Assembly (NCBI GenBank): GCA_900617105.1
Contig: UYFQ01000029.1
Span: 1-52,906 of the forward strand
Reading direction: 5' to 3'
Length of the DNA: 52,906 bases
Source: Hydrurus foetidus
Taxonomy: Eukaryota
Positions within the stretch are counted from its first letter, which is position 1; every line of letters begins with the position of its first letter. The position numbers were made by a program, and so were the translations under genes. Below the pieces are notes generated by a model. It did not search any database and was not told the origin of the DNA. It worked only from the letters and a program-made list of their open reading frames with translations. Below are positions 1-52,053 of this stretch, in pieces.

Positions 1-37
1 CGTCGTACGCTAGTCTGAGGATTTTATTTCTTTTCTA

Positions 38-3000: not shown

Positions 3001-3721
3001 CTTACGCGGTCTCGTGTTTGATACACCATCTCTTGAACACTATGCTAAATGCATACTATTTGTTCAACGTATCATTAACAGTTCAATTAATCGACGAACA
3101 AATGCAAGTCCTGCTTCGATTTTATTCGGCAATAAACTTGATTTGAATCGGGGTATTTTAAAACCCCATCTATTACCAACGTTGATATCTTCGAATTCAA
3201 CGTACATCACGGATCTCATCGACATACAGGACAAGGTCCTCGATGCAGCAATCGGTTCTCTTCAGAAATGTGATGACAAACACAAAAAGTCCACACAAGG
3301 TGTGACAGTGTTCCCTATAGGGTCATATTTTCTTGTAAAACAGGAACACCCTCCTATTCGATTACACACCAAGTGGAAAGGTTCCATCCGTGTCGTCTCC
3401 CTTGAGGGATCCGAGTATGTTCTCGCGAACTTAATTACACATAAGCACAATAGTGTACATGTGAGGAATCTTAAGATTTTTAATTATGACCCATCGCTGG
3501 GCATACCTGCTGATACAGCACGTCGCGATTACATGGAGTATTTCGTTGAGAAAGTTCTTAGTCACACTGGTGATTCAAAGAAACCGACATCCATGTCGTT
3601 CCATGTTAAATGGCTCAACTATAATAACTCACATAATGCATGGGAGCCTTGGAAGAATCTCCGGCTCTGTGATGCACTCCATGTATACTTGAGGAATAAT
3701 AACATGTCCCAAGAATCTTGA
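38..3721 (+). pseudogene. pol: Gypsy pol (protease C-terminal part, RT, RNase H, integrase, chromodomain), disrupted
   Basis: RT motifs CIDYRALN, DLTAGYHQ, LPFG, YLDD. RNase H TDASDYGIG, EAYA, TDH, NELADALSR. IN H..GH..CPCCQ, IDTFSR, SDRGSHF, VERVN. Chromodomain YFVEKV..VKWLNY..WEPWKNL. In-frame stops at 515 and 1350; frameshifts near 1000 and 2645. Confidence 0.92.
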
Positions 3722-5215: not shown

Positions 5216-5517
5216 TAGCGTAGTACATAGATGTTGTAGCCGTCTGGGGTCCTAGGGACCTTGGACCCGATACCTAAACTCCGTAGACTTCTAGGTAGAC
5301 TGCTAGCCATGCTTCAGGATTTGTCCTAGCGTTTGCCAGTTCTTTTCCTATCGCACCTAACCCTAAGCAAGATCTTTTTCCATCCTAGCCTAGACCCTTT
5401 TAGGCCACAGTGACGTCACTCAGCCGTTCCATCGTAGTTATCACCGTCATTTCCGCAGTTGCCATCGTCCTTTTCATCCGTCGTCTCCCAGGAACTATCG
5501 TGTCTGTCCACTGGAGG

Positions 5518-5981
5518 TGCGAGTCAGACTGTGGAGTGACGCTAGCTACCTGTTGGCTGCGGAAGCGCAAAAGAAAGACTATGTGATTGAGCTGTTCTCG
5601 GAAGACGTGTTTGCTTACAACGATCAGGTAGTAAAACAACTGGCGATGATATCAGAGAAGATAACAATAAAAAAAGGCAAAGCATCCAGTGTGCATGACA
5701 TGCTATTCAAAGAAGTGCGAATATATTTATTTAGTTGGCGAGTTGGCGATTCATCAACGGTCGGGCCCCTCGCTGCTATGTGAATTTGGATGCTTAGTGA
5801 AAAACGGATGCTTGATGATGGCCCCAAAGGGGGATATCGCTAGAAGAACGATGAGCGTATGTACACAACAGTGTATGGCGGTGTTTTGGGTGAGGAAGCG
5901 CTACACTACTTGTGACATGTGAATGCTAATCTACAGATGAAACTATGCTAACAGATCATGCATGAATATGCTGGACTGACA
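5518..5981 (-). repeat. Copia A LTR, diverged copy
   Basis: tgcgagtcag...ggactgaca; homologous to 44727-45234 with substitutions and fewer internal repeats. Confidence 0.92.
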
Positions 5982-6872
5982 CTCCCCGTAGTGAAGATGT
6001 AGCTGAATGTGTTATTGAGAGTCGTTGAAATAAATAGTGTGTGTGTATATATACTCCCCGTAGTGAGGATGTACTCCCCGTACAGGAGATTTCGCAAAAG
6101 TATAAAAAGTTATTATTAATATATGTGTGCACTCAAAGATAGTAAAATTAGTAAAGATGTTGATATGAATTATTTGTGTTATTTAATATGATTTCGTAAA
6201 GTCTTGTCAACGAGCCTGTGCGTTAGGTATTCGAAAAATGGTAGTGGAACTCTTTTCGTACCTATATCTGAGTTGTTTTCGCTCGAAGGGACACAGGTAC
6301 CATCGGCGACTTTGTCCTTTCGCTCAGGTCAATGTGACGAAGGTTCTTGGTCATGTGTGTATGATTTGAAGCATCAACACAAGCAGAATTGTCTTCTTCT
6401 ATGACTGTAGGAGCTTGTGTCCATCCGATGTGGTTTAGCATGCCCCGGAGGGGAATGACATCGGATTTTAGTGCGTGATTAACGGCCTTGATTTCGGATT
6501 CCGCAGTTGATGATGAGATGCTGCCTTGGTCGGTACTCTTCCAGCAGATGACATTGTCGGCTAGGTAGCCAATGTAGGAGGTCTGGGAGTGACGGTTGTC
6601 TTTGTTACCGGCGAGGTCAGCGTCGCATTGGAACTTTAACTGCAGTAGACTGGTCATCGTCGCGATGTCGGTGGGACCGTCGTGAGTTGTGAACTTGAGT
6701 CGGTCAATCTTGGCGTATTTGACATATCGAAGTAAGTGCTTGAGGAACTTGATGTGTCGCGCACCTGGACTGTTACTATATCTTGATAGTATGTTGAGAG
6801 CGTACATGATTGTAATCAATGTGTGTACCATACCGTACATAAGCTGACCAACTACCCGTCGGTAGGGATACT
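5518..6872 (-). mobile_element. Ty1/Copia family A, 5'-truncated copy (RT end, RNase H, PPT, 3' LTR)
   Basis: Collinear with 44727-46155. ORF 6262-6840 has DADLAG, SSSTAESE, EDN. Similarity ends at about 6872; small deletions in RNase H. Confidence 0.93.
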
Positions 6873-7208
6873 AAATCATACATTAGATGCAAATATTTAA
6901 ATTAGATGCTAAATGAGATATTTGATGATAAAAATGAATTAGATGGTAAATTATTTTACTAGATGAAATTATTTTACAATTGTTTTTAATGCTGAAAGAC
7001 ATTTTATAAGAATAATTATACATCAATAATATTTGGCAATGCGTCCATTTGAAATATTAGTATATTATTATTAAGATGTATTATTATATTAAATATATTA
7101 TTTAGAGATTTTTACGAAGTGTTTTATCATTAACTTATAAGATAAGATAATGCAGTGAATAATTGTAAAAGTAAACACTTCGTACAAATATCAGCATTAT
7201 TATCCTTT

Positions 7209-8299
7209 AAGAGCTCCACTCAAAAGATAAATACTACGTCTAGCACAGAAGCAGAATTAGTAGCTATGACTGACGCAGGTAATCAGGTTTTATGGACTAG
7301 GAATTTCCCTATCCACCAAGAGTATAAAGTCAGCTATAATTTACCAAGAGAGTTCAATAGGTCAAATAGCGAAAGAACTAGACACATTGACATCAAGTTT
7401 TTCTTCGTGCATGATCGAGTTAAATCCGACCATATTATTGTAACCTATAAGAGTACTAAAAAAATGATTGCAGATTTGCTGACCAAGCCACTGCAGGGGA
7501 AGCTATTTCAAGTGCTCAATGTATAAAGAAATTCAGGGGAGTCATTTATTGATTTTGACTTATCCACGTACAACGTTTTTTTCAGTCAAATTACAAAATA
7601 AAAATAAAAATCTGATTTCGCTTTAAATCAATATTTGATTGATAGGACCACTGAGGACATCGATAGACCGCATCTGCGACACCGAATGTCCATGTTTTAG
7701 TGGATTTAAGGGCACCAACATCGGTTGGATCGAACTCGAGACCGGTCACCAGCTCATGCTTTTTTGACTGATTGGAAATGGTTTTTCTCGAGAAATACCC
7801 ATCCACTTATCCAACCACCCATGTTTTATTTCACACCACATCACGATGCAACTTGTCAATATTAAAAAATTCCGTGAAAAATATTATAAATTTACTGTTT
7901 ACCATACCCTAACACTAAGTTCCCTATCTGAATGATGTGTGGAATATAATGAACAATAACAACTAAGTATACAATACAAGCATAAGCTAATTAACATATT
8001 CACTTATTTAAACAATAACCATCATGGGGGTGTGTTGTGATATCTGGATTAGACTACGATCTTGTACCCTGTGTGATGTATGATTGTTTGCTGGCACATT
8101 CAGCGATAACATTGACCGCAACCCTCGCACTCATGTTATGCTACCTATATGTAATAGACAGCACGTCACTGCCGTTTAATCCAACTTACCGAATAGAACG
8201 TTGTCTTCTCTTTTGAGCAAGCGTTGCTAGCAGTCGGAAGTGCAGGGATCGTTTGGGAACTTGGAAGAAATTCCGTGTAAATCGCCCAGATTTCCAACA
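7209..8299 (+). mobile_element. Ty1/Copia family B, 5'-truncated copy (RNase H end, 3' UTR, PPT, 3' LTR)
   Basis: Reverse-complement homolog of 13631-14782. SSTEAEL..RTRHIDIKFFF..IADLLTKPL with internal deletions. Confidence 0.93.
8033..8299 (+). repeat. Copia B LTR (3' LTR of truncated copy)
   Basis: tgttgtgatatc...ttccaaca, preceded by catcatgggggtg. Confidence 0.9.
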
Positions 8300-13630: not shown

Positions 13631-13909
13631 TGTTGGAATTCTGGGCGATTTACACGGAATTTCTTCCGAGTTCCCAAACGATCCCTGCACTTCCGACTGC
13701 TAGCAACGCTCGCTCAAAAGAGAAGACAACGTTCTGTTCGGTAAGTTGGATTAAACGACAGTGACGTGCTCTCGATTACATCTAGGTAGCATAACATGAG
13801 TGCGAGGGTTGCGGTCAATGTTATCGCTGAATGTACGTACACCCGTGCATGAAAACAATCATACACCACACAGGGTACAAGATCGTAGTCTAATCCGGAT
13901 ATCCCAACA
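13631..13909 (-). repeat. Copia B 3' LTR
   Basis: Direct repeat of 18777-19055 with about 5 substitutions by eye; preceded on the minus strand by catcatggggtg (PPT). Confidence 0.96.
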
Positions 13910-14419
13910 CACCCCATGATGGTTATTGTTTGAATATGTGAATATGTTAATTAGTATATGCTTATATTGTATACTTATTGGTTATTGTTCATAATGTTTC
14001 ACACAACACTTAGATAGGGAACTTAGTGTTAGGGTATGGTAAACAGTAAATTTTCTTAAAAATATTTTTCACGGAATTTTTTAATATTGACAAGTTTCAT
14101 CGTGATATGGTGTAAAATAAAACATGGGTGGTTGGATTAGTGGATAGGTATTACTCGAGAAAAACTATTTCTAAACCGTCAAAAAAGCCTCAGCTGGTGA
14201 CCGGTCTCGAGTTCGATCCAACCGATGTTGGTGCCCTTAAATCCGCTAAAACGTCGACATTCGATGTCGCAAAAGCGGTGCATCGATGTCCCTCGCGGTC
14301 CTATCAAACAAATGTTGATTTAAAGCGAAATCAGATTTTTATTTTTATTTTGTAATTTATCTGGAAAAAGCGCTATAAGTGGGTAAGTCAAAATCAATAA
14401 ATAACTCCCCTGAATTTCT

Positions 14420-17400
14420 TTATACATTGAGCACTTGGTCACGTAGCTCTTGGAATAGCTTCCCCTGCAGTGGCTTGGTCAGCAAATCTGCAATCATTTC
14501 TTTAGTACTCTTGTAGGTTACAATAATATGGTCTGATTTAATTCGGTCATGCAGGAAGAAAAACTTGATGTCTATGTGTCTAGTTCTTTCACTGTTGGAC
14601 CTACCGTTCTTAACTAACTGAATTGTGGATAGGTTATCTTGGTAAATTAAAGCTGGACCTACCTCATACTCTTGATGGATAAGGAAATTCCTAGTCCATA
14701 AAACCTGATTACCTGCTTCAGTCATAGCTACTAGTTCTGCCTCTGTGCTAGACGTAGTATTTAATTTCTGAGTGGAACTCTTACCATATATTGCTCCCTT
14801 ACCTAGTGTTATAATACAGCCAGTGTGACTCTTCTTATCTGCATGTACAGCGTATGATGCATCTATATAGGCTATAACCTTAACCGGAGTATCTACCTCT
14901 AGGGTCAGCGGCGTAGCTCTAGTCTCTCTGATATACCGTATAGTATGCGCTAACTTATTCCAGTCGTCGGTTCTAGGTTCTAAGACTCTTTTAGTTAGAT
15001 ATGCTATACATGTCAGTATGTCTGGTCTGGTTCTCTTACTTAAATATAACAACTTAGCTGTTAGTGAGTGGAATCTCTCACGTTCTTTATCTTTCAATAA
15101 AGGACTGTTAAGATCGATCTTAAATAGATTATCGTCGGCAGGTGTTCTAGACACCCCCACAATCTCTATGCAATCGTCTAACAAGTCTTTTATGAAACCT
15201 TCCATGGATATGACAACTCTGCCTAACTGCTCAAAGTTAAAAGTCATACCTATATAATTCAACACTTGCCTCTACTCTTAGTCAGGCCTGGGTATAGTTT
15301 TCTATCTCTGAAATTATACTATCTATACGCTTCTCATCCCTACTGCTGATCATCATATCATCAACATGGATAACTAAAGTAGTCTGAGTGGAATCTAGCT
15401 CAGTCCTATTGAATACACATATGTCTGATGGATTTACCTTATAGCCTAACTGTGTTAAATCTGATGATATTTTATCATACCATAACTTAGCTGACTCTAC
15501 ACATCCATATAATGCTTTCTTAAGCTTAACTACTACTGTTCCTTTCTCATTTACATACTTCTGATAAGACTTGTCAATGCTAACTAATATGTTAGTCAAA
15601 TATTTATTCAGTCTCATCAGCACTGCATGGTCACCGTCTAGTGGCATATCACTGTTGAGGAATGCACCAGGAAAATCGATCGTAGCGACCGCTCGATTTT
15701 CACTAGCAGCAATTGCAGCAACAATAAATACGCTAGTGGTGCTAACAGTTGGTGATGAACCGTTATCATATATATTTCTATCTTGTAGATGACCTCCTGC
15801 TACAAGTCTAGATTTTAGCTTATCAAATTTACCATCTGCTGTATACTTATCTTTTAAAAACATACTGCTGGTTATGATACTTTTCCTCTGATTGTAACTA
15901 AGACTGTTGAGGTGAACTGCCTCCCACACATTCTTATCACACATCTGTTGTAACTCTTTTTTAATGGAATCTACGGCTATCTCGCCTAATTTCTGTACTC
16001 CTTCTGTTACGGTCATGTTCATCATGTACTTACACATAACTGAATCTTTGTAGCTAGGTATACTTAAACCTACTAATCTCTTATTCCATCTACCTGGCTG
16101 ATGGTTTCTAGCACTACGTCTGGGTTGTTTATCTAGAATTTCCTCTGACTTGCTATTTTCTGTGGTGGGGTATCTACCTCATCATCACTGTCTACACCAA
16201 ATATATCATTCATTAATGCATCGGGGTCAGTTGGTGTATCGTCATACACTACATCCTCTCCTTCATTAACGTATATATCATTTGGTATGTATTCTGTTAA
16301 TTGTTCGAACTCTGATTCGTAAGCTACATCAGAATTGCCATCGTATGAGTCAAAATTATTTGCTATCTCATGATGCACAAATTCGTCTTCTGTAGGATAA
16401 CTATACGGTGTTATCATGTCAGGTGTCTGCAACTCAAATTCATCGTTGGAGTAATCATTTCCATCGTCTTCGAGGATTTGATTACTCTGTTCGAAAATAG
16501 GTTGCTTGACATTCACTGACATATTCAATTTCCTCTCAGATGCTAACTTATCGAGGTAACTGATCACATCATCTGTCATTGGTAGGCGAGTAGCCTTTGT
16601 CCTCTTCACTACTTTTAAGTTAGCTAACAGCAGATAATACCATGACCCTTCTAGGTTGCCTGCACTAACTAATGCTATTGCTGCCTGTGATCTGGGTTTG
16701 TTTGAGTTATCCACGGTATCGGTGTGTACTTGTACGTAATCACCGAAACCGTGTTTCAACTCCTTATCTACGTTAATCTTTCTACCGTATAATTTCTCTC
16801 TGGGGCTGACGTAAGCTACACTGTTTCTAGTTGGTACTAAATTTAATCTGTTCACAACATATCTAAGTAACCAACTTTCTAGTAGCTCACTCAGTGAAAA
16901 AGGTACCGTGTTAATGATAGCACGAACACGTTCCTTGATCATTCTTGTAGCTGACATTTTTGTCTAAGTCGCATAGATATATGTTCGTAGACTGATCATG
17001 GACAAATCTATATACAGGTCCTGACTTAAGCATTTTAACTTTATAGCAGTCTTGGTAACTATCATAGCTAACTGACTCGCTCACGCTAACTATGTTGCCA
17101 AAACTTAAAATATTAGCTATTCAATTGCTGTCGAAATAAACTGTTCCGAAATCCGTCTCGCCACACTCCGTGATTATCAAGGGTTCCCCCTGAGGGTTCA
17201 CTCCATTAATAATCATCGGGGTAGCGGACGGCATAATACTATAAAATAAATCTCTACTACAAAATACTGACTCGGCTGCGCATGCATCTAATAACACTTG
17301 TCTGTCCGTGAATGTGGAGCAGTGTGTATATACATTCGCACTAAAAATCACAGGGTCACCCCCACAATTTTTACTGTTCAGTGGACAAAAATTCTCCAAG

Positions 17401-17535
17401 CTGCATGCTTTATCTAACAATGGCACAAACGCAGGGTAACCGGTCGACGTTGCAAATACGTCATGCAGTCCGGTTTCCCCACACGGAACATTTACATCCT
17501 TAGCTAGTGAATCAGGTAAAAAACATATAAGGGAC
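14420..17535 (-). pseudogene. pol: Copia B pol (PR, truncated IN, RT, RNase H)
   Basis: PR LLDACAAES; RT KSRLVAGG, DFPGAFL, KKALYG, HVDD; RH IDASYAVH, SSTEAEL, QDN, ADLLTKPL. Stop at 17121, integrase core missing, breaks at about 16130 and 15280. Confidence 0.93.
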
Positions 17536-18720
17536 TTACTTTTCCGAAGAAGGGTGACGCGCAGGTGCGTTCTTCCTCGGCGGCTTCTTACACTCGTACG
17601 CGTAATGGCCCTCCTCCCCGCAGTTGTTACACGCTCCGTAACGGGTACCGTACTCCTGTACGGCACCACCTCTCTCTCTCTGTGGGGTGGCCTCCCTATC
17701 CCTATAGGGAGTGCCTGCCCTCTTACTGCTCTCGCTGCCGGGGGTGTCGAATCCTCCCTTCTCAGCTCCGCTCTCTCCGCTGCCACGGCCTCTGCCGCCT
17801 CTCCCGGTTGAACCCGCTCTCCCACCCCGACTGGCCGCGAAAACGTTTCGCTTCTCCGAGTTCGGGGGAGCTCCTCCGTGGACGGGCCTTCCCATGAGGA
17901 AGTTGGCCGCGTCCTGGTTGGCATCGGCCATGGTCTGCGGCCATGACCGAACCTTATTTTTAAACGTATTGATATATTCTAAATAGTTTGAATTAAGTCC
18001 AGTTACAAATAATACAGCATGGAACTCATCTGTGTGAATGGGCTCTTCTTCGTCGGCGATCCTGTATGACTCGCTCTTGACAAACAGAAGCGTCCTACAC
18101 CTACTAAAATAAGCAGCTAGATCTTCGTTCTGGTACATTTTATTATTATAAAAGTTTCTAATAGCTGTAGTCATATTATATACATCTCCATACCTTTTGT
18201 TGTTCATGTGTGTTGCAACCACACATGTCAACACCTCCAAAGGATCGCAGTCCTCTATGGCTCTCTTGCCTGCCGGCATCTCGTTCACCCTTGTGATCGA
18301 GGCGTCCGACATCTGACCTAGTATTACACCATACAGTTTTGCGCAGTCTTTTTTATGTAATTCAATATTAGCAACATATTTCTTACTTGCTGTCTTCCAC
18401 CTCTCTATGGCCACCATGCCGGCGTTATCCGGCGGGTCGTCTGGCTCTACGAATTCTTCGTAATCTGAGAGGACCCCATCTATGCCAATAATTTCTTTAA
18501 TGGAAGATTCGTAAGTACTATACATATATACTCTTAAACATTCAAGCCATTTCAACACAGCTTCCGGATCTGCCGCTTGGCCTCGTGGCAGATCCAGGTA
18601 AGCACCTACCTCGGGCTTCCTACCTTTTACTATGGGTTTATGGGGCTCGCCTTGCCCCCTACCATATCGACCCCTGCCCCCGCCACGGGACTGGAATCTT
18701 CCATCGCCTCGTCCTCTCAT
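17536..18720 (-). CDS. gag: Copia B Gag (394 aa)
   Basis: Intact ORF 56 nt after the 5' LTR; RGG-rich N-terminus; CCHC knuckle CNNCGEEGHYAYEC; homologous to 33010-34128. Confidence 0.92.
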   Translation of the reverse strand: MRGRGDGRFQSRGGGRGRYGRGQGEPHKPIVKGRKPEVGAYLDLPRGQAADPEAVLKWLECLRVYMYSTYESSIKEIIGIDGVLSDYEEFVEPDDPPDNAGMVAIERWKTASKKYVANIELHKKDCAKLYGVILGQMSDASITRVNEMPAGKRAIEDCDPLEVLTCVVATHMNNKRYGDVYNMTTAIRNFYNNKMYQNEDLAAYFSRCRTLLFVKSESYRIADEEEPIHTDEFHAVLFVTGLNSNYLEYINTFKNKVRSWPQTMADANQDAANFLMGRPVHGGAPPNSEKRNVFAASRGGRAGSTGRGGRGRGSGESGAEKGGFDTPGSESSKRAGTPYRDREATPQRERGGAVQEYGTRYGACNNCGEEGHYAYECKKPPRKNAPARHPSSEK

Positions 18721-18765
18721 CCTTGCAATCTTTTTGCAACTTACTATCTAAGCTATCTAAGGATG

Positions 18766-18776
18766 ACTGTCGTTTA
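18766..18776 (-). promoter_or_regulatory. Non-tRNA primer-binding site of Copia B (TAAACGACAGT), complementary to LTR site 18898-18908
   Basis: Directly abuts LTR terminal CA; no TGG; perfect 11-nt reverse complement of ACTGTCGTTTA in the LTR sense strand. Confidence 0.8.
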
Positions 18777-19055
18777 TGTTGGAATTCTGGGCGATTTACA
18801 CGGAATTTCTTCCGAGTTCCCAAACGATCCCTGCACTTCCGACTGCTAGCAACGCTCGCTCAAAAGAGAAGAAGACGTTCTATTCGGTAAGTTGGATTAA
18901 ACGACAGTGACATGCTGTCGATTACATCTAGGTAGCATAACATGAGTGCGAGGGTTGCGGTCAATGTTATCGCTGAATGTACGTACACCCGTGCATGAAA
19001 ACAATCATACACCACACAGGGTACAAGATCGTAGTCTAATCCGGATATCCCAACA
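18777..19055 (-). repeat. Copia B 5' LTR
   Basis: tgttgggatatc...aattccaaca on the minus strand; direct repeat of 13631-13909. Confidence 0.96.
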
Positions 19056-19322
19056 TTTTTGTACTTCGTATTTCGTCCAACCGTATGGATTGACCTTATT
19101 GTGGCCTGAGGCCGGTCCTTATGTACACCGGAATTCATTTTAAACAGGAACAGGATTTCGGTTTTTAAATTCCTGCTCGGTCTCGAACGAGATTTCGGAC
19201 CATTTTTCCTGTTCGAACCGAGCTGGAAAAAAAATGGAGCAGGATTTCGAGAGAATTCATGGATCAAAATCAAGAGTTTCGCAAATCCTGTTCTTGTTCG
19301 GGGGAATTCCGGTGTACATAAG

Positions 19323-19702
19323 CTGCGTTCGCCCATAGGTATAGGGCCCTATGTAGGTTTTCTCGAAATAATTTATATAGGGCCCTAGGTTATTGGAATT
19401 TTCAACTTATACGGATCAATTAATAATTTGTTACTTAATGTGTTTATAGGAGTGTTTGTAGCTAAATATAAACATATACAATGAAGAAATAAGAAATCAT
19501 ATCTACTTCAAGTGTACGTACGCACAGCACATTTGAACATACTTACAGTACATTTTTTTCGTACGTACAGTGCGTTTGTGCGTAAGTGCAGTGCTTTTGT
19601 ACGTACGCATAGCCTATATAGGCCTATATAGGCTTTTGTGAAAAGTAGGGGCCTATATTATAGAGAATAGGGTTTCTCAAAATTACCTATGGGCGAACGC
19701 AG
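19323..19702. mobile_element. MITE with 8-bp TSD (hAT/P/Merlin-type duplication length)
   Basis: 19-bp TIR ctgcgttcgcccataggta / tacctatgggcgaacgcag; TACATAAG direct repeat at 19315-22 and 19703-10. Confidence 0.88.
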
Positions 19703-21219: not shown

Positions 21220-24200
21220 GACCGTTCCTTACGGCACGAGTTCAGGATCTGGGATTTCGTAAAATCACCCTATGGGGCGGAAAAAACGTGAATTTTTCCA
21301 GAACTCAAAAACTCAGAACTCGAGTTCTGGAAAAACAGGCAGGGGTTGCACGGTCGTGCGCACACGCGCACACTCACTGTTAACTTTATATATCGACTTC
21401 GTCGACGAACATACTCATCACTCGATAGCACCATCTCTCACAGATATACCCTGCAGAAAACTTTCGTCCTTTAAGCTGCCACTTCGCGACCTGACTAACT
21501 CGACCATGGTGAGTCTAGTGGTAGTATTTTTTTCCAATGAAATTCAACCGATCGACCAAAAACTGTCTTCTCCTGAAGATCGATTCATCGACAAAGGTTG
21601 CTTGCAGCCAGAATTCATCATCGGCAACAGTTGCGAGTGCTTTTCAAGATGATTTCAGTAGCTGTTAATAGCATCAACTAAACAATGATGTGAAAGTAGC
21701 TCATGCAACTACTTTTTCGATCTCCTTCTTCATGTATCAGGCACGCACAAGTTTGCACGGACTGGCATCTTAGCTATAATCTCTCTCTACCTGTGATTCT
21801 GTGCGCACCTCAATCCCTTTCATTGTGAGTCATGGCAGATATGAGTTACCAGCAAAATTTCTCGGAGAATGAGATCAAATCTCACCTCCTCTCTTACCGA
21901 ACTTGCCATTTTTGATGGATATCGTCAGATTGACAGTCTCTTCCGTCCATCAATGTACTGGATATCCCCGTAACAGCAATTTTCTTCGATAAGCTGTCAG
22001 ACATGAAGTGTAGAGGCACCTTTTTTTCGGATAACGTCACGCGTCCAGAGGTTGCAATGTTGATGGCAGATGTACACACTTATGTTGATGGCAGAATCGG
22101 AAAGAGAAAACATTAGCAGGCTGAAGTGGGCTAAGACAAACATCGTTAGCTGCTATTTAAGATTAAGAGACAGTACATACAGTATCATTTATAGATCATT
22201 AGTCATATCCTTTCTCAAAATTTCTAAACAATCATCTGCGATAGTGTATGCATTAAGTACCTGACTACCACCAATAACTTTATTATTCATACGACACACC
22301 AAATAATTTTCACGTGTAAGCTCATCATTATCAATTGGAATATATACATCTTGTATTGGTATTTTAATCTCTTTCGACTTGCTTGGAATATAATACACAT
22401 TTTCATTTACATTTTGACAGTACATTAGCTTTATAGTCATGCACCATGTACCCTTCTTGATTGTCTTTTTCATTCTTAAGCCATTAATCTCATATTCAAT
22501 TTCAGAATCTCGTATTGATTCTTTCATTTTTTTTGTCATGAGGCCCAACTGAAACGGCTCATCGTTAACGTCTTTTTTCTCGCTAGCAATAGCAATAACT
22601 ATATTTGTTTCGCTGCTTAGAGGTAGAGGCCCCTTAAAGAAATTGATCCTTTTTGTCTCATCGCACGATGTATTCTTCGGGAGCGCTGGCTCTTTGAACG
22701 GTAACTTTTTTACTTGTTCTTCCCTTAATGGTCCCGATGTTGGAGTATAATCACATCTGTGGAAATCATTTTTAATGCAACTGCTGCAGAAACACGAATG
22801 TTGTCGACTGAACAATTTAATTTGCCCTTGCTCTTTATAAGCTATTAAATTGAAGATTCCCTTGATTCCTTTCACTGGAGGCGCATCCCATCTTTCTCCT
22901 ATGTAGTCCGTGATTATAACATCTTTTTCTTTCGTCGCTCTTTCGATCATGTCAGGAGTTGCATCAACTTTATCCACAAGGAATCGATGGAATCTTCTTG
23001 TTATAGTCATAGGATTCCTTTGAGAATCTTCTACAACATCCGGAGCCATAGGGTACTTTGAGGTGAAGAGTTTGAATAGATCATAGGATGTAGGGCAACG
23101 TGTTCCTTCTTCTTCATCTCTCTCTAACTTCCTATAAAATGCTTTTGTAACATTTCCTTGACCATCCACCATTGTCTTGAATGATGCTGTGGGCGCATAA
23201 TTGTGAGTAACCACTACATTGAAGTCTTCAGCTAATGCTGCAACGAAGTACGCATTCCTTCGGCTTTTGTACTGCTCGGCACAACCATCTGTAAAGATGT
23301 TGATTCTGCTCAAATTAAGATCTTCTTACTCATTTACAATGTGTCTCGTCGACACACTGTGGTAGTAACTATTTGCTTCTAGAACTCCGCCTTGCGCTGA
23401 CCAAATATGCCAAACGTCATTATCCTGAATCCTCTTTAATGTTCCATTTTTTAGTACTATGGATCTTGGACTGTGGGTCGCCAGAAAAATACATTGGTTT
23501 GACCGACACGGTACGGCGGTGTTTAGCCTATCTTGTACATCGTGGTCTAGGACAGCTGAAAAATCAGTCATCAGTGTAAGAACTTCCGTTGATGAAGTGT
23601 TTACACATACTGTTCTTGCGTGTGCATTCCACTTTACATTCCACTCATGTGGTATGGCCAACTTCGCGCAGAGTATTAAGTGTTCTATGAGCTCATCTCC
23701 ATTCATCTTAACTTCAACAATTTCATACTGCATCCCACGCGACCTTCCAAGCACATTTTCATATTTGCGGACTATAACTTCAACATCCTTATTTCTTTCA
23801 ATATTGCACATATTTGTTTCATTAAAAAATCTGTCTATTCCGCACTCATTACACTGCTGATATGCACAATCTTTGTAATAGCATGCAAATAATGGACCCC
23901 ATGTTAATAAAGGAATGCTCTTTGGCTGCCTCGCTGATCCCTCTCTTTTTATATTTCTGTTTTTTTTTAATTTTCCAGTATTAGATGCTACTTCTTGTTT
24001 TAAGCGTGATGCTTCAACATTCATTTCTTCCTGTTTTTTAATACTGTCAGTTGGATTTGATTCTGAAGACAGAAGCGGATACTCTTTTTTCGGGCACAGG
24101 ACAGCGTCCATGAGAGCACTTAATGAAATATGACATTTTAAATAATTTTCGTTTCTGTGACCGTTACATAAGCAGCTTTTCATCGGAATCGATATTCCTT

Positions 24201-26173
24201 GATACCTTCGAAGGTTTGCAATAGCTTTGAGAGAATTGTAATAATTTATTTGTATGTGATTTGCACAATCTCTTTGCTTCTGATTCATGCAACATGGACA
24301 GAATGCGTTGGCAAATATTCTTAGTTTTATTGTCGGAATGATAGTACTTACTGTATTACCCTTTCTTTTAACTCTCAAATTTTCTTTCTGCCAATTATTG
24401 TATTCAGGTGACTTTTGAAATATATCATAATAACATTTGATGGATTGACTTCTTACATGGACCTGATGGTACGAGAATGTCCCGTCATAATTGTGTACGT
24501 ACACTTTAGCTGAGGCGAACGTATCAAGTCTACAAACATCGTGACAAAAATCTCGCACGACACCAAGGTCCAATTTATCATCCCTTATCTTCCTTTCCTT
24601 TGGCGACAATGCCGTATAGAAGATATTAGTCTTTGGCTTCCTAATTGAGTCAGAATTTCTATATTACTTTTCTGATCCAAACTTTCACTGTCATCATCTA
24701 AGTCCATCATATTGCAATAATGATTCTCTATGTCAGTAGATATTACATCAGCTCCTGACTCATCCGATGATTGCAATTCATTCAATGTATGGTATGTTTT
24801 AATCTCACTTTTCTCCTTTTCTATAAGTTGATCGAATACATTTCGTTTTATTTTTCCATTTGTTATTCTTCTTCTAGACACACCAAACAATTTTGATATT
24901 TCAACACTATTCGAATTTTCATATGATATTGCTGTGATAACATTTTCTATTGTGCTCTCCACTAGCGAGAACTTTCCACCGTATTCGCGGAGACCGTTAA
25001 AGTAATTTTTCAAAGAATTTATGATACTATTATTCGTTTCGTTATTTACTTCCTTATTTTCATTAACATTATACTGTTTCTTAATATTAATTATGATACC
25101 TTCCATAATTTGACATTTTTTAGATGGGCTAAACCCTACAGTGACTTCGTCCAGGACTTTATTAAGTTTCTCAAAAATCATTTTCACGCTTTGATTGATC
25201 GACGTTGCTCTGGCGTAGTCTTTTTTACCGGGACCCCTCTCACCCCACTTCAATTTTCTCTTTTCACCGACGTCTTCTCTTACATCATCATCGGATTTCT
25301 CATCTGGTTTCAACCAGTCCGTCGGCACGTGTGAACCTCTCCTACTCATCCCACCCGACACCGTGAAAACGATCATCTTCGTTTGGTAATCAGCTCTGCC
25401 CTCGAAGAAGAAATTCCCAGCATTCATGAGAATTTGAAATCCACTTTTGTTCTTCTTGCTGTAATCCATTAAACCTTGGTATATGAACGCATTCATCCCA
25501 AATGTCTCGCATTCTTTTGATAAGTAAAGACTAATTTGTCCAGTTGCTGGTGCAACAGTCCTTCGAAACACGCTCAAATCAGAATCTTTGTGATTGAAAT
25601 AGGAGTCCAGATCACTCAGAAATTGATTAAAGCGGCCCAATAAATCCTGGAGTCCATTCTCTTCCGATTCAACATTGCGGCCACCGATTTCCTAAAAACG
25701 AAGGGAGAGAGAATGGTTGCATGAGCTACTTTCACATCATTGTTTAGTTGATGCTATTAACAGCTACTGAAATCATCTTGAAAAGCACTCGCAACTGTTG
25801 CCGATGATGAATTCTGGCTGCAAGCAACCTTTGTCGATGAATCGATCTTCAGGAGAAGACAGTTTTTGGTCGATCGGTTGAATTTCATTGGAAAAAAATA
25901 CTACCACTAGACTCACCATGGTCGAGTTAGTCAGGTCGCGAAGTGGCAGCTTAAAGGACGAAAGTTTTCTGCAGGGTATATCTGTGAGAGATGGTGCTAT
26001 CGAGTGATGAGTATGTTCGTCGACGAAGTCGATTTATTAGTACAGAACGTGTGCGCACGACCGTGCAACCCCTGCAGGGCCATTTTTCCAGAACTCGAGT
26101 TCTGAGTTTTTGAGTTCTGGGAATTTTCAAATTCCAAGAACCCAGAACTCATGCCGTTTTAAAAGGAACGGTC
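21220..26173 (-). mobile_element. DNA transposon with long (about 460-490 bp) TIRs and a Sola-like transposase, TGA TSD
   Basis: Termini gaccgttcctt / aaggaacggtc; TGA flanks; 318-bp inner IR, apparently perfect, at 21392-21709 / 25716-26033. Confidence 0.88.
22189..25640 (-). pseudogene. Sola2-like DDD transposase (about 1150 aa) with one frameshift and one in-frame stop
   Basis: Motifs TDFSAVL, FTDGCAEQYK, APTASFKTMVDGQG resemble the DF..../SDGCxxQYK/HGKxxxDG pattern. Cys-rich segments (CPCC, C..C, SCFCSSC). ORFs 23326-24609 and 22189-23313 are in the same frame. Confidence 0.7.
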
Positions 26174-26390: not shown

Positions 26391-27946
26391 ATGCAGAGAC
26401 CAACTTCACTGGAGAGCAAAACCCACAATGTTGAAGTGTTTTGTCACATGATACTTGAAGAGTTTATGACTACCAGGAACATGCAATCCACACTTCAAGC
26501 ATTCAGGAAAGAGTGGGATCGTCCGACTGAGGTAATTTTTATCGAAGATTAGTGCCACTTCTCAATCTCTTTGCTGATCTAAAGCTCATCATAATCTTCA
26601 CGGAATCTCCTCCATATAGGATGTCACTATATTTTCTTGGTACAACTTGATACTTAAACTTCAAATGTCAGAGCTGCTTCATGAGAATGTAAAAGATGAA
26701 AAATCTACAGTTTTAGAGTGTCTTGTGATGGCTCTTGCGAAAGGTAGAGTTTCAGTAGGTGTGCAGTAAAATTTCCAGCGGTAACAATTTTCTCTCACTC
26801 TTACAGAGTCCTCCATTCGCTCTCGGCGACCCCTGGATGCAACTATAAACAACATGGTCTCAATGCCGAAAGTCACATCTCTGCCATGCTTGTCAGATCC
26901 TAAGATAGTATCCCCAGCATTTGAGAATGAACCACGTCAGAGTCCAGTGAAAGAAAAGAAATCTGCTCCAAACACAGCGAAGATTACAAAAAACACTCCT
27001 CGGACCCAGATTAATCATGGAGGAGATGCAATTCTGATTCCATCGAAGTTGGATAGAGCCGATAAATTTAACTGTGGGAAAGCAATCAAGACATCAGCTG
27101 AAAATTGGTTACCTGACAGTTTTCGAATGAGATCACGTATGAGGGAACTCGCCATGGCACAGGAGACTCTAGACAGTATTATAGTTCGAGAGGGTGATCA
27201 ATTAAGACAACAAAAAAGATTGGCAGTACCAGTTTACGACAAAGCACTGAATGAAGAGAGCTTAGCGATGGTTAGAAAACATCCATGTGGCTGCTGCCTG
27301 CAGAAATATTTATACGTCAATTTGCCCCTTAAAGTATCACAAAAAGCCATAATTGATATTCGAGTGAAGTGGACTGGTATGTTGTTAAATTTATAGTCAA
27401 ACTGATAATGCCCAACCTATTGTATCTTGCACACCCTTCGCGACCTCTGACAATATTCTATCTACAGGAGGAATGACGTCTGCGAAAATATTCTTCGACA
27501 CAAGAGCTATGACAGCTGCTGCCACATTTGATGCTGGAATCAACACATCCATGCTATCTACGAGCATGTCCGAGACCTCCAAGTGCGCAACGAAAGCAGA
27601 CAAAAAGCCGTCTACTCCTCCATACCAGAACATGCATGTGTCCCGTAGCTCTATTAACGTGTACGATCAAGTGCTGGTATGTCTCTTCTGCTCTCAGTAC
27701 TTCCAGTCGCAGGAGGACTACAGACCATCCTTCGCGGACATGGTTCACAGTGAGAAGAGAGCGAATCACCTGGAGCTACTGGAGAGAGAGAGGCAGTATT
27801 GGGATCCGCTCATGATGGTGGAGAAGGACAAGAAAGAAGAAGAGGAGGAGAAGGAACGCATAGAGTATGAGGCATTGCTCGCTAAATCCCTAGGACACAT
27901 AGCAGAGGTCTATGCTGATGCCAATGATGCTCTTGAAGACGCTTAA
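26391..27946 (+). CDS. Host gene, 4 exons (26391-26531, 26620-26743, 26807-27376, 27468-27946); unknown protein with N-terminal LisH-like motif and split Cys pairs
   Basis: Three GT-AG introns join the exons in frame. CHMILEEFMTTRNMQSTLQAFRKEW is LisH-like. CGCC and CLFC pairs; acidic coiled-coil C-terminus. Confidence 0.8.
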
Positions 27947-32607: not shown

Positions 32608-32972
32608 TGTCGGAATAACTAATGAGCTAAGTAACCGTATAAGTTATTACGTATGTACATTTGATGACGTTTCGTACGTCGTGTGCCGTGTGGTGGTCGC
32701 TACTCCACCGGTCCAGGTTCCTTTAACCCAGGAACATCAAAAAGATGAAAGTGCACCATGTTTGACTGTGCGGGACAGCGCGATCTTTTCGCCTGTCTCC
32801 ATGAACGATGTAAGCGATGTTGCATCGTTAATTACCTTAATACTCACACCAGCAGAGCTTTTGCCTTGAGCCCGGGAAAGCTGCTAGCGCACGTGTTGAA
32901 CTTGCAGAAGGAGCGCGTACCCAGGAAGGATATAGTTTTCCATTCAGTGGAAACTGATCCTTAGTTACGACA
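32608..32972 (+). repeat. Copia C 5' LTR
   Basis: tgtcggaata...gttacgaca; direct repeat of 38624-38988. Confidence 0.97.
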
Positions 32973-32983
32973 TAATTAACGAT
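32973..32983 (+). promoter_or_regulatory. Non-tRNA primer-binding site of Copia C (TAATTAACGAT), complementary to LTR site 32824-32834
   Basis: Abuts LTR CA; no TGG; perfect 11-nt reverse complement of ATCGTTAATTA within the LTR. Confidence 0.82.
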
Positions 32984-33009
32984 TTGCTTTCGTTGCAACC
33001 AGTTGCAAC

Positions 33010-34128
33010 ATGAAAGGCAGAGGCCGAGGCAGAGATAACAATACCGCAGGCGGTCGAGCAAACCCTGCCAACGGTGGCAGAGGGAATGCTGGCCGCGGCG
33101 CGAAGCCTCCACCAAGAACAGGAACGGTAGCCGCGATCGGCGCATTCCTGGATCTAGGAAGGGAGATGAACCATGGCAGCGTAAGCGCATGGATGAGGAA
33201 GTTCCGCGAGTACACTCGCGCGAACTACAAGTCCGATATCTGCGAGATATTCGGCAATGAGGGCATACCGGGTAATTACCCGCAATATGTCGCTCCAGTT
33301 GACATAGCAGCAGATGCTGGCTTTATGGCGGCAACAAAGTGGAAGAGAGCGCTAGAGCTTTATGACAAGCTCATCCTGACTTTAAGGGAAGATAGAAAAC
33401 AGGTTTTCGGATTAATGCTAGGGCAAATAAGCGAACAGTCGAAATCGACAATTCGAGAAACCGAATCGGGTGCTACCGCCATGTTAGAGGAGGACCCACT
33501 ACTATTGCTGCGAGCAATAATATTGACTCATCTATCCGACCCGAGGCTAGGAGCAGACCAGAACCTTCTCAGAGTCCGCATGGCCTATGAAACAGTTAGG
33601 ATGGAACCTAACGACGTTTTGAAATTTTACTACCAACGGTTCAAGGCTTTGAAAGCCGGGTACGAGGATACTATGCGCGCATTAGGAGTAATGCCCGAAT
33701 TCAACGAAGCTATGACTGCGCACAATGAAGTGCTAACCGGCATGAAATTCATGAACGGGTTGAACTCCGGCTATCGACACTACGTCGAGTACTACGAGCA
33801 CAGGCTCAAGGACTGGCCGGATACGCTAGAGGAGGCGTACCTAGAAATGGCGAAAGTAACGCCGAAGAAACCAGCGGCCACAGCACCACCCAACCAGACC
33901 AACGTCTTCGCCACGAAGATGGCTGGAGGTGCAAAACAACCTGGGATGGACGATGGGAAAGGTAAGGCTAACGGGAACGGAGGTAGAGGGAAGGGTGGGC
34001 GTACGTCGTACGGCACCCGTCCCGGGAATTGTAACAAGTGTGGCGAACTAGGACATTACTCATACGAGTGTACGGCCAAGGATAGCCAAGCGGGTGCATC
34101 AGCACCCACAGGAAAATCGGTAAACTAA
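33010..34128 (+). CDS. gag: Copia C Gag (372 aa)
   Basis: RG-rich N-terminus; CCHC knuckle CNKCGELGHYSYEC; follows the 5' LTR. Confidence 0.94.
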   Translation: MKGRGRGRDNNTAGGRANPANGGRGNAGRGAKPPPRTGTVAAIGAFLDLGREMNHGSVSAWMRKFREYTRANYKSDICEIFGNEGIPGNYPQYVAPVDIAADAGFMAATKWKRALELYDKLILTLREDRKQVFGLMLGQISEQSKSTIRETESGATAMLEEDPLLLLRAIILTHLSDPRLGADQNLLRVRMAYETVRMEPNDVLKFYYQRFKALKAGYEDTMRALGVMPEFNEAMTAHNEVLTGMKFMNGLNSGYRHYVEYYEHRLKDWPDTLEEAYLEMAKVTPKKPAATAPPNQTNVFATKMAGGAKQPGMDDGKGKANGNGGRGKGGRTSYGTRPGNCNKCGELGHYSYECTAKDSQAGASAPTGKSVN

Positions 34129-37100
34129 GTAAGATACATTATTCCTCACCTGTACACTCACCCACACCTACACCTGTACATACACCCGCATTTACATCCA
34201 CACACACACCTATACATACACTCACCGATCCTCCATGTTTGGCTGATTCCACTAGCGGAATTGAAACATGTGATCATATTGTTTTTAGTGCTAACACATG
34301 CAATGTATATAACGCAATTAGAAAACGTCACATACTTCTTGACACATGTGCTGGTGAGTCGGTTTTCAACGACTCATCCCTGCTGTATAATGTTGAACAC
34401 GCACCCACACCCATGATTGTTAGCGGGGTGAATCCGAAAGGAAAACCGCTAATAATCAAGAAACGTGGGGTGTCGGCGTTCGGCAAAGTGTATTATAGCC
34501 CTGACTGTGCTGGTAACATATTGTCTTTTGGTAATGCTGTACGTGACTGTACTGATGTTAAGTACTTACACGACTATGACTGTTACATAGTGCAAGATGT
34601 CAGCGGAAAATATTTTTATAGATTCTCACGAGATGAGACTATGAATATATACCAATGCAATCTTGACACTATGGTAACTGAATGCATGCCAATGTTAGTT
34701 ACGACAGTCGAACAGAATAAGAAGAAGTATACAGTAAGAGAAGTTAGAGACGCGTCGTTAGCTAGAGACTATCAGCGTAGACTAGGATACGCTAGCGCAG
34801 CACAGACCATTAAGTTGATATCCCAAGGGAATTTGACTAATAGCAAAGTGACTGCGCGAGACGTACATAGAGCTATTGATATATGGGGACCGGATGTGGG
34901 ATCCCTTAAGGGGAAGACCACTAGTCACCAGGCCAAGTTAGAAGAAAAGTTACCATTGATAGGTATAGAGTACAAGACAGAACAAACCATGTACGTAGAT
35001 ATAATGTTCGTCAACCAGGTACCATATCTAGTATCAGTTGTTCAGCCCATCGAGTTTCTATACGTTAGTAAGTTAGCTAACAGAGAACACAAGAGCATAT
35101 GGAACAGTTTGAAGACTTCATTAGCAAGCATGGTAAAGTACAGATTCAGAGTTAAAATGATCCGAGTAGATGGCGAGGGTGCAATTAACACAGAATGGTT
35201 TCACAACAAAGTCGGTTTAAGAGGTATAGTATTAGACGTTACCGGAGCCGGAGAAGCCGTAGCCGTTGTCGAGCGTAAGATACGGCACATAAAGGAGAGA
35301 GTAAGATCAGTGATTAATTCTCTGCCATTCTCATTAAACGAGAAACTAGAAGTGTGGTTAGTTAAGTATGCAGTCAGTAGAATTGTATTAGCTCCCACAC
35401 GTAACTCACTCAACCACATCAGTCCGAGAGAAAAATTAACCGGAAGAAAGCTAGATGTAGACAAAGAGATTAAACATGGTTTTGGTGATTATGTTCAAGT
35501 ACATAACGATGTCATTGATAATTCTACCAAACCAAGAACAGCCGGGGCCATAGCACTTATGAGCTCCGGTAATCTAGAAGGTTCATGGTACTATATGCTG
35601 TTAGCTAACGAACGTATTGTAAAACGTACTAAAGCAACTGTACTACCTATGCCTGATGAAGTGATATTACACTTGAATGTATTAGCTTCAAAGAGAAAAA
35701 CTGCCAATGTTAAACAGCCTGTATTTGAGAATAGTAGTCACATTGTATTCGATGATGATGACGATGTTGAAGATGATAGTGCTTACATTGGTGATGTTGA
35801 ATATGAAACTGTCGATGAAAATGCTAACGCAGACTACACCGATGAGATCATTGAAGATAACGATCACAATGATAACGAAACACATCTTGAATCACAACTC
35901 GATATGTCTGATGAAAATCACCCACCCACATTAGATGAGTATGTAGATGACACACTATATGTAAATGACACTACATATGACAACGACGAACTATATTATG
36001 ATGACACACATGATGATACACATGTACCCCAACCTAAATATGATCAAGCACTGATAGATGACATATTTGGAATAAGTGATGATGAAGATGACTTCGCTGA
36101 TGTAACTGTACACCCTGAAGTATTCACTCCACCTGACACCATAATAGACACTGCATATGACCCACCTGTTATTAACTCACCCATACTGCGTAGAAGTGGT
36201 AGAAATCACCAACTTGGAAAATGGGATAAGAAATATGTTGGTAACCTGTTTTATAATCACACTCACCTGTATAAAATGACTGTTAATGAAGGTATTAATA
36301 AGTTAGGGGTGATAGCTGTTGACTCCATCACATCTGAACTCAAACAAATGTGTGATAAGAATGTTTGGGAAGGTGTAACTTATGAATCCCTCACCCCACA
36401 ACAAAAACGCACCATCATATCTAGTAGCATGTTTTTAAAAGAAAAGTACACTGCTGATGGTATGTTTGAAAAACTGAAATCTAGACTAGTAGCCGGTGGG
36501 CACTTACAAGATAGAGATGTTTATAACAATGGCGCCTCGCCTACTGCTAGCACATCTAGTGTATTCATACTGACTGCAATTGCTGCTAGACAGAAGCGTG
36601 CTGTCGCCACTGTTGACTTCCCCGGTGCATTCCTGAATAGTGATATGCCGCTGACCGGCGACCATGTAGTGTACATGCGTCTGAATAAACAACTGACTGC
36701 TGCACTAATCAAAATTGATGCAACATATAACAAATACATGAATAACAATGGAACATGTATTGTTAAACTCAAGAAAGCTCTATATGGATGCGTTGAATCT
36801 GCTAAGCTATGGTATGATAAGCTATCCAGTGATTTGATTAAATTCAACTATATTGCTAATGAATATGATATTTGCGTATTCAACCGAACTGAACCGGATA
36901 ACACACAAACCTCACTCGTAATTCACGTTGATGATATGATTATCACTGCTTCATCTGAATCTCGTGTGAACGATGTTATAACTCAAATTGAAACTTTATA
37001 TCCCGGTTTAACGAAACATAGAGGAAAAGTTTTGAACTACATAGGTATGACCTTTGACTTCAACAAGGAAGGAAAGGTCAAGATGACAATGGAGGGATTT

Positions 37101-37997
37101 GTACAAGATCTCATTGAGGGGTGCGGGGATATGCCGGGCACGGCTACCACACCCGCACGGCCAAACCTATTTACCCCACCTGTTGAATCTGACTCATACT
37201 TACCTGATAATTTGCGTGAGCGTTTCCACTCCATTACAGCGAAGCTACTCTACTTGAGTAAGCGGACGAGGCCAGATATTCTGACAGCCGTGGCGTTCCT
37301 AACCAAGAGAGTACTGAAGCCCCAGAGGGACGACTATGACAAGTTGACCCGCACGGTACAGTACGTACGGGGCACCCAACACATGGGTATAACTTTTGAA
37401 GTGTCTGAACCTATCCGTGTTATTGCATACATCGATGCATCTTTCGCTATACATCCCGATATGAAAAGTCACACAGGCTGCGTGATCACCCTGGGAAAGG
37501 GAGCAATCTATGCCAAGAGCGGAACCCAGCGGCTGATGACAAAGTCGAGCACGGAGGCAGAGTTGGTCGCACTCAGCGACGCCTCCAACCAAGTGCTGTG
37601 GACTAGGAACTTCCTAGAACGCCAGGGACACCCTCAACCCCCTGCACTCATATACCAGGACAATCAGTCCACCATACAACTAATGCGTAACGGTCGCTCA
37701 AATAGCGAACGGACTCGCCATGTCGACATTCGATACTTTTTCCTGCACGACAGGATCACCACGGGTGATATCGATATTGCGTATTTACCTACTACTGACA
37801 TGATTGCAGATATCCTAACTAAACCACTACAGGGGGAATTGTTTAAGAAGCTCAGGAAGGAGCTGCTCAACACTACACCACCTACCCTCACGTACGCAGA
37901 AGGCTGCAAGACTGAGGACCGTACGGACTCTGCGCCGACACCCGTACGAACAAAATTCAACCCACACTTTCCATACCCCACGTCCAAGAAGAACTAA
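34086..37997 (+). CDS. pol: Copia C Pol (PR-IN-RT-RNase H), -1 frame relative to gag; frame open from 34086
   Basis: PR LLDTCAGES; IN YVDIMFV, VDGEG, VERKIR; RT KSRLVAGG, HVDD; RH IDASFAIH, SSTEAEL, QDN, ADILTKPL. Confidence 0.95.
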   Translation, partial: PSGCISTHRKIGKLSKIHYSSPVHSPTPTPVHTPAFTSTHTPIHTLTDPPCLADSTSGIETCDHIVFSANTCNVYNAIRKRHILLDTCAGESVFNDSSLLYNVEHAPTPMIVSGVNPKGKPLIIKKRGVSAFGKVYYSPDCAGNILSFGNAVRDCTDVKYLHDYDCYIVQDVSGKYFYRFSRDETMNIYQCNLDTMVTECMPMLVTTVEQNKKKYTVREVRDASLARDYQRRLGYASAAQTIKLISQGNLTNSKVTARDVHRAIDIWGPDVGSLKGKTTSHQAKLEEKLPLIGIEYKTEQTMYVDIMFVNQVPYLVSVVQPIEFLYVSKLANREHKSIWNSLKTSLASMVKYRFRVKMIRVDGEGAINTEWFHNKVGLRGIVLDVTGAGEAVAVVERKIRHIKERVRSVINSLPFSLNEKLEVWLVKYAVSRIVLAPTRNSLNHISPREKLTGRKLDVDKEIKHGFGDYVQVHNDVIDNSTKPRTAGAIALMSSGNLEGSWYYMLLANERIVKRTKATVLPMPDEVILHLNVLASKRKTANVKQPVFENSSHIVFDDDDDVEDDSAYIGDVEYETVDENANADYTDEIIEDNDHNDNETHLESQLDMSDENHPPTLDEYVDDTLYVNDTTYDNDELYYDDTHDDTHVPQPKYDQALIDDIFGISDDEDDFADVTVHPEVFTPPDTIIDTAYDPPVINSPILRRSGRNHQLGKWDKKYVGNLFYNHTHLYKMTVNEGINKLGVIAVDSITSELKQMCDKNVWEGVTYESLTPQQKRTIISSSMFLKEKYTADGMFEKLKSRLVAGGHLQDRDVYNNGASPTASTSSVFILTAIAARQKRAVATVDFPGAFLNSDMPLTGDHVVYMRLNKQLTAALIKIDATYNKYMNNNGTCIVKLKKALYGCVESAKLWYDKLSSDLIKFNYIANEYDICVFNRTEPDNTQTSLVIHVDDMIITASSESRVNDVITQIETLYPGLTKHRGKVLNYIGMTFDFNKEGKVKMTMEGFVQDLIEGCGDMPGTATTPARPNLFTPPVESDSYLPDNLRERFHSITAKLLYLSKRTRPDILTAVAFLTKRVLKPQRDDYDKLTRTVQYVRGTQHMGITFEVSEPIRVIAYIDASFAIHPDMKSHTGCVITLGKGAIYAKSGTQRLMTKSSTEAELVALSDASNQVLWTRNFLERQGHPQPPALIYQDNQSTIQLMRNGRSNSERTRHVDIRYFFLHDRITTGDIDIAYLPTTDMIADILTKPLQGELFKKLRKELLNTTPPTLTYAEGCKTEDRTDSAPTPVRTKFNPHFPYPTSKKN

Positions 37998-38612
37998 TAC
38001 CTATCGACGAAGACTCCATCCGACATGCTACCCCCTCCATCTTACCCTTCTACAACGCCGCTGTCCGCTTCAGCTGAAGACTGAACACTCAAGACCCCAA
38101 GACTCCGTCATTCCTACTGCCCCCACATCCGACTCTACTACCCCATCAGCGCGCGTCATGACGAAGACTGACCACTCAAGACACCAAGACTCCATCATTC
38201 CTGCTGCCCCCCTCCATCACTTTTCTTCTACCCCATCAAGTGCGACTCAAGAAAACCCTGACAGAGACATAAAGAGCGAGGACCGTGGACCCAGACCCAA
38301 GACCCGATTCCGGAATCAGATAGTATAACAAGTCAGAAAATTATTTTAAGTGTAATCTTTTGCGTGTTACATAAAGTCTTTTTAGAATTGTTTAACTCTA
38401 TGCTCATTCGGATCAGTCAGACCTTATGATACTAATATTACCCTGCATGCAATAAATTATCTAACGTCACAATTAAGGTCAACCCCACCATTACCCTACT
38501 TCCCTACAATATAAAATCATGTTATGATACACCATTTGTGAAGCTTCAAGTAAACGAGCATTTTTGAATTCTATTGCGTTTTCATTCGCGTACACCAACC
38601 CGACGACTCACG

Positions 38613-38623
38613 CCATAGGGGTG
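38613..38623 (+). promoter_or_regulatory. Short PPT of Copia C (ccataggggtg)
   Basis: Directly precedes the 3' LTR; same GGGGTG end as in family B. Confidence 0.7.
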
Positions 38624-38988
38624 TGTCGGAATAACTAATGAGCTAAGTAACCGTATAAGTTATTACGTATGTACATTTGATGACGTTTCGTACGTCGTGT
38701 GCCGTGTGGTGGTCGCTACTCCACCGGTCCAGGTTCCTTTAACCCAGGAACATCAAAAAGATGAAAGTGCACCATGTTTGACTGTGCGGGACAGCGCGAT
38801 CTTTTCGCCTGTCTCCATGAACGATGTAAGCGATGTTGCATCGTTAATTACCTTAATACTCACACCAGCAGAGCTTTTGCCTTGAGCCCGGGAAAGCTGC
38901 TAGCGCACGTGTTGAACTTGCAGAAGGAGCGCGTACCCAGGAAGGATATAGTTTTCCATTCAGTGGAAACTGATCCTTAGTTACGACA
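38624..38988 (+). repeat. Copia C 3' LTR
   Basis: Direct repeat of 32608-32972. Confidence 0.97.
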
Positions 38989-45234: not shown

Positions 45235-45441
45235 CTCCCCGTAGTGAAGATGTAGCTGAACGTGTTATTGAGAGTATCGAAATGAATGATATGTGTATAT
45301 ATACTCCCCGTACTGAGGATGTACTCCCCGTACGAGAGATTTGGCAAAAAGTGTAAAAAGTTAGTTATAATATATGCGTGCACTCATATAAGATAGTAAA
45401 ATTAGTACGTATGTTAGAAATATGGATATTAAGTATTTATG

Positions 45442-51977: not shown

Positions 51978-52053
51978 GGCCGACTTGAGATATCTGTTGT
52001 GATGAGATACCGTTGATATATTGATACTATATCGATGATTGCTGAACTTTCTA

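Follow-up and report, generated by a model that had tools for sequence, protein, structure and literature searches.

A putative self-priming site in the LTR of a Ty1/copia retrotransposon and in its metagenomic relatives

How might a Ty1/copia retrotransposon prime reverse transcription when the sequence that follows its LTR lacks the TGG of an ordinary primer-binding site (PBS) and is complementary to the LTR itself? The question is raised by element B, a Ty1/copia LTR retrotransposon on the minus strand of the window (the whole stretch of DNA analysed here, 52,906 nt), and we approached it through the structure of B, a comparison with two further copia elements of the window and a survey of metagenomic relatives.

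Element B and the pairing between its PBS and its LTR

The 5' LTR of B (18777..19055, minus strand; 279 nt, TGTTG...CAACA) is repeated directly, with 274 of 279 positions identical, in the 3' LTR (13631..13909, minus strand), and the target-site duplication (TSD) is AAAAA. Between the LTRs, on the same strand, lie a gag ORF (17536..18747; 394 aa from ATG) with a CCHC zinc knuckle and a pol region (14420..17978) that is broken into several ORFs, making B a defective copy. Pol follows the order PR-IN-RT-RH, with an RVT_2 match in 15282-16178, and the HVDD motif of RT and the acidic motifs of RNase H are recognisable in its translations. A short purine-rich tract resembling a polypurine tract (PPT), GGGGTG, stands before the 3' LTR (13910..13917, minus strand), as the same motif does in most relatives. 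The marks of Ty1/copia elements, namely TG...CA LTRs, a 5-bp TSD and a PPT, are thus present in B and likewise in its sister element C, whose TSD is GATAC. Both also carry a copia-type RT (RVT_2) with the integrase upstream of it; the integrase was called by reading motifs in the translation, Pfam rve having given no match in B or C. An intron joining gag to pol was rejected, because it would be in frame solely in the broken B copy. A small inverted-repeat element, possibly MITE-like, adjoins B at ~19115-19330 (arms ~19118-19136 and 19305-19323). B was present mostly in metagenome sets from freshwater, biofilms, sediments and glaciers.

The PBS of B, TAAACGACAGT (18766..18776, minus strand), begins at offset 0 from the CA of the LTR and is without TGG. 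Positions 18776-18766 pair over exactly 11 bp with positions 18908-18898, that is, with the LTR segment ACTGTCGTTTA (18898..18908, minus strand), the exact complement of the PBS and the predicted self-primer. The pairing is bounded by the LTR CA and, at its far end, by TCA: the LTR segment stands in the initiator-like context TC-A-CT, starts 132 nt from the LTR end and is the predicted 5' end of the transcript. The 121 nt inside the duplex, the R-U5 loop (18777..18897, minus strand), fold into two predicted hairpins. The same 11-nt site recurs in the 3' LTR at 13762-13752, and a decayed 3' fragment of family B (7208..8299, plus strand), which has no PBS, carries the LTR site at ~8168-8178 with one mismatch inside it. 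A first-pass annotation, made from the letters of this DNA, had given the coordinates, the PBS, the 11-nt complement, its TC-A-CT context and the distance of 132 nt for B, and all of these hold on recomputation.

We compared this pairing with several measures of chance. When the LTR of B was subjected to 20,000 dinucleotide shuffles, a complement of at least 11 nt never arose at offset 0 and arose 21 times at any offset from 0 to 5. As a background for the window, 234 of 105,132 positions (0.2%) were preceded within 300 nt by an 11-nt complement. The predicted folds of the leaders of B and C are closed by the PBS-LTR duplex, which is contained in the minimum free energy (MFE) structure with 10 of 11 bp in B (z -3.1) and with 11 of 11 bp in C (z -2.3). 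Further, a list of family B variants was drawn from contigs of four runs, with differences near contig ends filtered out; 31 places at 18730-18950 vary, of which 30 lie in the 121-nt loop and none in the 22 arm bases (Fisher p 0.004 for loop versus arm).

Element C (32608..38988, plus strand) has identical 365-nt LTRs and open gag and pol, and its predicted primer (32824-32834) and PBS (32973-32983, both plus strand) form an 11-nt complement that was reached in 4 of 20,000 shuffles. Consistent with the first-pass annotation, the LTRs of B and C give no alignment (blastn E 1.8 at best) while their Gag and Pol are homologous, with identities of 29% in Gag and 66% in RT-RNase H. The two elements had also been presented as independent cases of the pairing, and this was not borne out. 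B and C are sisters on the RT tree (support 0.994), and their PBSs, read from the LTR end, are the same at 6 of 11 positions and differ with compensation at the other 5, so we count a single origin with five compensated positions. The ends said to be common to the two predicted primers (A at the start, TTA at the end) are indeed present in both but represent a clade-wide bias, not covariation, PBS positions 1-4 being mostly T/C-A-A-T across the clade. Similarly, a length of exactly 11 nt is correct for B and C but is no constant of the family, in which relatives have 9-21 nt.

Copia A (44727-52575, minus strand) had been proposed as an internal control. It has a TGG PBS, with TGGTAGCGATTG after the LTR, and its own LTR offers a complement of at most 4 nt at offset 0, or 7 nt if any offset is allowed. 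However, within copia A stands very far from B and C (blastp E 0.03 at best against the Pol of C, with an RT very distant from those of B and C) and is therefore not a strong control; it shows no more than that not every element triggers a match in the search. A also contains a CCCH zinc finger, the names of its long homologues are uninformative, and part of a second copy is found at 5515-6883. In C (34086-34128) and in two relatives, L001 and L003, gag is separate and pol is read in the -1 frame relative to it; near the gag stop of L001 and of L003 stands a slippery-like heptamer, G GGA AAG, and many distant relatives are single-ORF. This arrangement suggests -1 frameshifting between gag and pol in the B/C sub-lineage.

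The pairing across metagenomic relatives

The first-pass annotation had proposed that PBS and LTR complement be tabulated for the clade and mapped onto an RT phylogeny. With an alignment of the Pol of C and 43 of the 120 listed homologues as query, we retrieved 77 metagenome loci (from the best 80 of 324 confirmed); a scan for relatives in viral contigs found none. Under a blind rule, which took the LTR end from nothing but the terminal inverted repeat located upstream of gag, 52 loci were scored together with B and C, and one further locus gave no candidate. A complement of 9 nt or more was found in 28 of the 52 loci, in each case matched by at most 2 of 300 shuffles. In 19 of the 24 failures of the rule the junction had been called wrongly and a clear complement was visible by eye; the others were L016, L018, L044, L056 (needed DNA absent) and L059, the last of which has an incomplete LTR sequence and no complement of 9 nt or more. 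Five positives (L021, L035, L049, L058 and L039) came from outside the blind table. Overall, the 77 loci comprise 52 positives (28 blind and 24 called by eye with the complement in view), one undecided locus (L059) and 24 that were not judgeable; the duplexes of L042, L058 and L076, among the by-eye positives, are imperfect.

The curated table has 53 rows and 50 distinct PBS 11-mers, with a mean identity of 40%; one of its loci, L015, has a 15-nt complement that is underscored there because the search span was too short, and was omitted from the folding runs. The complement of the PBS 9-mer was found in the element's own LTR in 46 of 50 cases, compared with 9 of 2,450 for the LTR of another element. 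TGG occurs within the first 6 nt of the PBS in 1 of the 53 rows, and that row has a 14-nt complement in its own LTR. Across the lineage duplex length has modes near 10-11 and 14-16 nt; the duplexes of B's nearest relatives are 9-11 nt long, except for one of 14, and in a distant, well-supported clade most consist of 14 bp and an unpaired A. Loop sizes are 48-215 nt. In L001 and L012, which are close to B and C, 9 perfect pairs are followed by a one-base bulge, after which pairing seems, by eye, to resume.

Positives occur throughout the unrooted RT tree, in elements with as little as 33% identity to C. As A did not align, the tree lacks an outgroup, and for this reason we claim no origin or order of events. 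Tabulated in this way, the pairing is kept in 52 of the 77 relatives, over the whole tree, and the earlier view of the duplex as functional and covarying is supported, far more by the relatives than by the comparison of B with C. Taken as sequence evidence, these results indicate that the PBS-LTR duplex is real, lineage-wide and probably functional.

We next consider the far edge of the duplex. Among 50 distinct PBS types, 41 have this edge at a CA that resembles an initiator, against a background of 10.3% (p 4e-32, with relatedness among elements ignored); the edge is the A of the CA in 24 and the base after it in 17. The flanks that lie outside the CA rule are also biased among the 41, with T at -2 in 32, C/T at +2 in 37 and A/T at +3 in 39, and the resulting consensus, T-C-A-Y-W, agrees with the initiator-like motif TCAHW of diatoms. 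Because +1 in the diatom motif is the base after the A, according to the sections of PMC4686930 that were consulted, the start of B could be 18908 or 18907. In the near-identical L028 and L029, which have the same primer site, the first PBS difference stands opposite the A of the CA. Folding was set aside as a weak locator of the transcription start site (TSS). The duplex reaches a probability of at least 0.5 in 40 of 45 leaders, falls below this value in the other 5, and still forms in 26 of 42 when 100 nt of extra upstream RNA is added; B loses it only with the whole U3 and C with 25 nt extra, and most relatives keep it. Since the duplex mostly survives longer upstream RNA, folding does not fix the TSS.

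Probable self-priming and the alternatives to it

We consider it likely, from the arrangement of the sequence, that the B lineage primes reverse transcription from its own LTR site by Tf1-like self-priming. Transcription of B would start at 18908 or 18907, and the first 11 nt of the RNA would fold back onto the PBS across the 121-nt loop. By analogy with Tf1, the element's RNase H would cut after nucleotide 11, the last paired base, and the freed 3' end would be extended by reverse transcriptase into U5-R strong-stop DNA. Plus-strand synthesis would then copy the primer back into the PBS. In retroelements the primer is copied into the PBS during plus-strand synthesis; by this route both arms could drift together, which would explain the 50 different PBS sequences.

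The same duplex geometry and length as in B are reported for Tf1/Tf2 of Schizosaccharomyces pombe. In the consulted parts of PMC7175516, Tf1 has an 11-nt PBS beside the LTR CA that is the complement of the transcript's first 11 bases, and RNase H cuts between bases 11 and 12. Like the Tf1/sushi group, B has a PBS complementary to its own 5' LTR. Tf1/sushi elements, however, are Ty3/gypsy chromoviruses (RT-RH-IN, chromodomain), whereas B is a copia element with IN before RT and RVT_2, and gave no match to a chromodomain; the Tf1 duplex is 11 nt and that of the B lineage 9 to 21 nt; and the mechanism has been shown for Tf1, whereas for the B lineage we infer it. In its working, element B probably resembles Tf1, without belonging to Tf1/sushi. 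Tf1 also requires a three-duplex 'pretzel', as stated in the excerpts consulted of PMC10085805, and the corresponding side duplexes were not enriched in the B lineage (3/44 and 2/44 at p<=0.05, medians ~0.5), the U5 stem of B being borderline (p 0.055).

Self-priming in copia is not unprecedented, as it has been predicted for the plant Ty1/copia TAR elements (Houba, Osr-1), namely for 89% of 203 elements in the sections consulted of Neumann et al. 2019 (PMC6317226), and B has the feature described there, a complement of 10 bp or more that starts 0-5 bp past the LTR. By the same partial account TAR elements mostly have one ORF, whereas in B and C gag and pol are separate and overlap; TAR hosts are plants, whereas the host here is likely a chrysophyte. 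The CoDi elements of diatoms are, like B, stramenopile copia elements, and no priming mechanism was found described for them in the consulted sections of Maumus et al. 2009 (PMC2806351). Fungal GalEa resembles B in being a copia element that lacks a tRNA PBS. In the consulted text of Donnart et al. 2017 (PMC5445492), GalEa has a Conserved Hairpin Site (CHS) after the LTR, and no complement to it was detected in the LTR by the authors; the CHS is a local hairpin that is conserved, whereas the PBS of the B lineage is variable and pairs with the LTR. In the literature searched, which left most subscription journals outside, we found no report of self-priming in a stramenopile copia element.

The duplex might instead be a conserved long-range RNA structure that acts in packaging, dimerisation or control of leader translation, with another primer in use. 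Such a role would fit the missing Tf1-type side duplexes, the variation of duplex length from 9 to 21 nt and the formation of the duplex in longer RNAs as well. We nevertheless think it unlikely, because in nearly all cases the pairing begins at the first base past the LTR CA and ends at the initiator-like site, which is the geometry that a primer needs, and because an alternative PBS is not visible. Somewhat less probable again is priming by the same sequence in trans or without cleavage, be it as a short capped RNA, a dimer partner or the 3' R copy: although the site is found in both LTRs and, with no pretzel, the cleavage signal lacks an explanation, folding strongly favours the cis duplex, and a 3' R copy serving as primer would presumably block strand transfer and require an unpolyadenylated end.

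Priming by an internal or half tRNA, with the LTR site as a decoy or relic copy, has a precedent in the copia lineages Osser, Bryco and Bianca (PMC6317226, in the part consulted). For the elements studied here it is very improbable, as the 50 PBS 11-mers with their mean identity of 40%, each matched by the LTR of its own element, would need as many different tRNA fragments; no tRNA genes were found in the 52,906-nt window. Chance or a non-functional copying artefact, to which the calling of part of the positives by eye gives some room, is scarcely credible in view of the shuffles, the cross-element control and the spread over the whole RT tree, and is contradicted by the blind set.

Self-priming from the LTR site thus remains our preferred reading for the B lineage. 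We are evenly divided on a broader proposal, in which a widespread copia lineage of aquatic protists, among them chrysophytes and diatoms, would have evolved its tRNA-free priming separately from both Tf1/sushi and plant TAR, through a simpler substrate of one duplex without a pretzel, with a primer length (~10-11 or 14-16 nt) heritable by sub-lineage and a PBS rewritten from the primer in each replication cycle.

The host and the meaning of the pairing

A probable host gene, to which no function was assigned, lies at 26785-27946, and for its part at 26785-27396 the best match, and the only one that names an organism, is to Ochromonas (62%). This match of one gene suggests that the host is likely a chrysophyte. 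The window also holds the remnant of a Ty3/gypsy chromovirus (1-3721, plus strand) with RT, RNase H, integrase and chromodomain, whose 5' LTR and PBS fall outside the window. At 21289-26129, terminal inverted repeats of ~420 nt (94%) flank three long minus-strand ORFs, for which no convincing Pfam family was found; this is likely a DNA transposon. Also observed were a tandem array at 39940-40938, with ~5 copies of 190 nt (99%), and, at 42200-44086, an inverted repeat of 821 nt (98.5%).

Self-priming is experimental for gypsy Tf1 and, within copia, merely predicted for plant TAR in the sources as consulted, and what is likely new is such a trait in a likely chrysophyte host. In practical terms, LTR finders that demand a tRNA PBS will under-call such elements, and the LTR complement would predict the transcription start of each element. 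If the proposed mechanism is true, the lineage would offer a minimal substrate for studying the recognition and cleavage of an RNA-RNA duplex by RNase H, with L001 and L012 as natural imperfect substrates and with C, which is intact and has identical LTRs, as a ready test case. Overall, if self-priming is true here, a large protist copia lineage would do so without a pretzel, and the switch away from tRNA would have arisen repeatedly.
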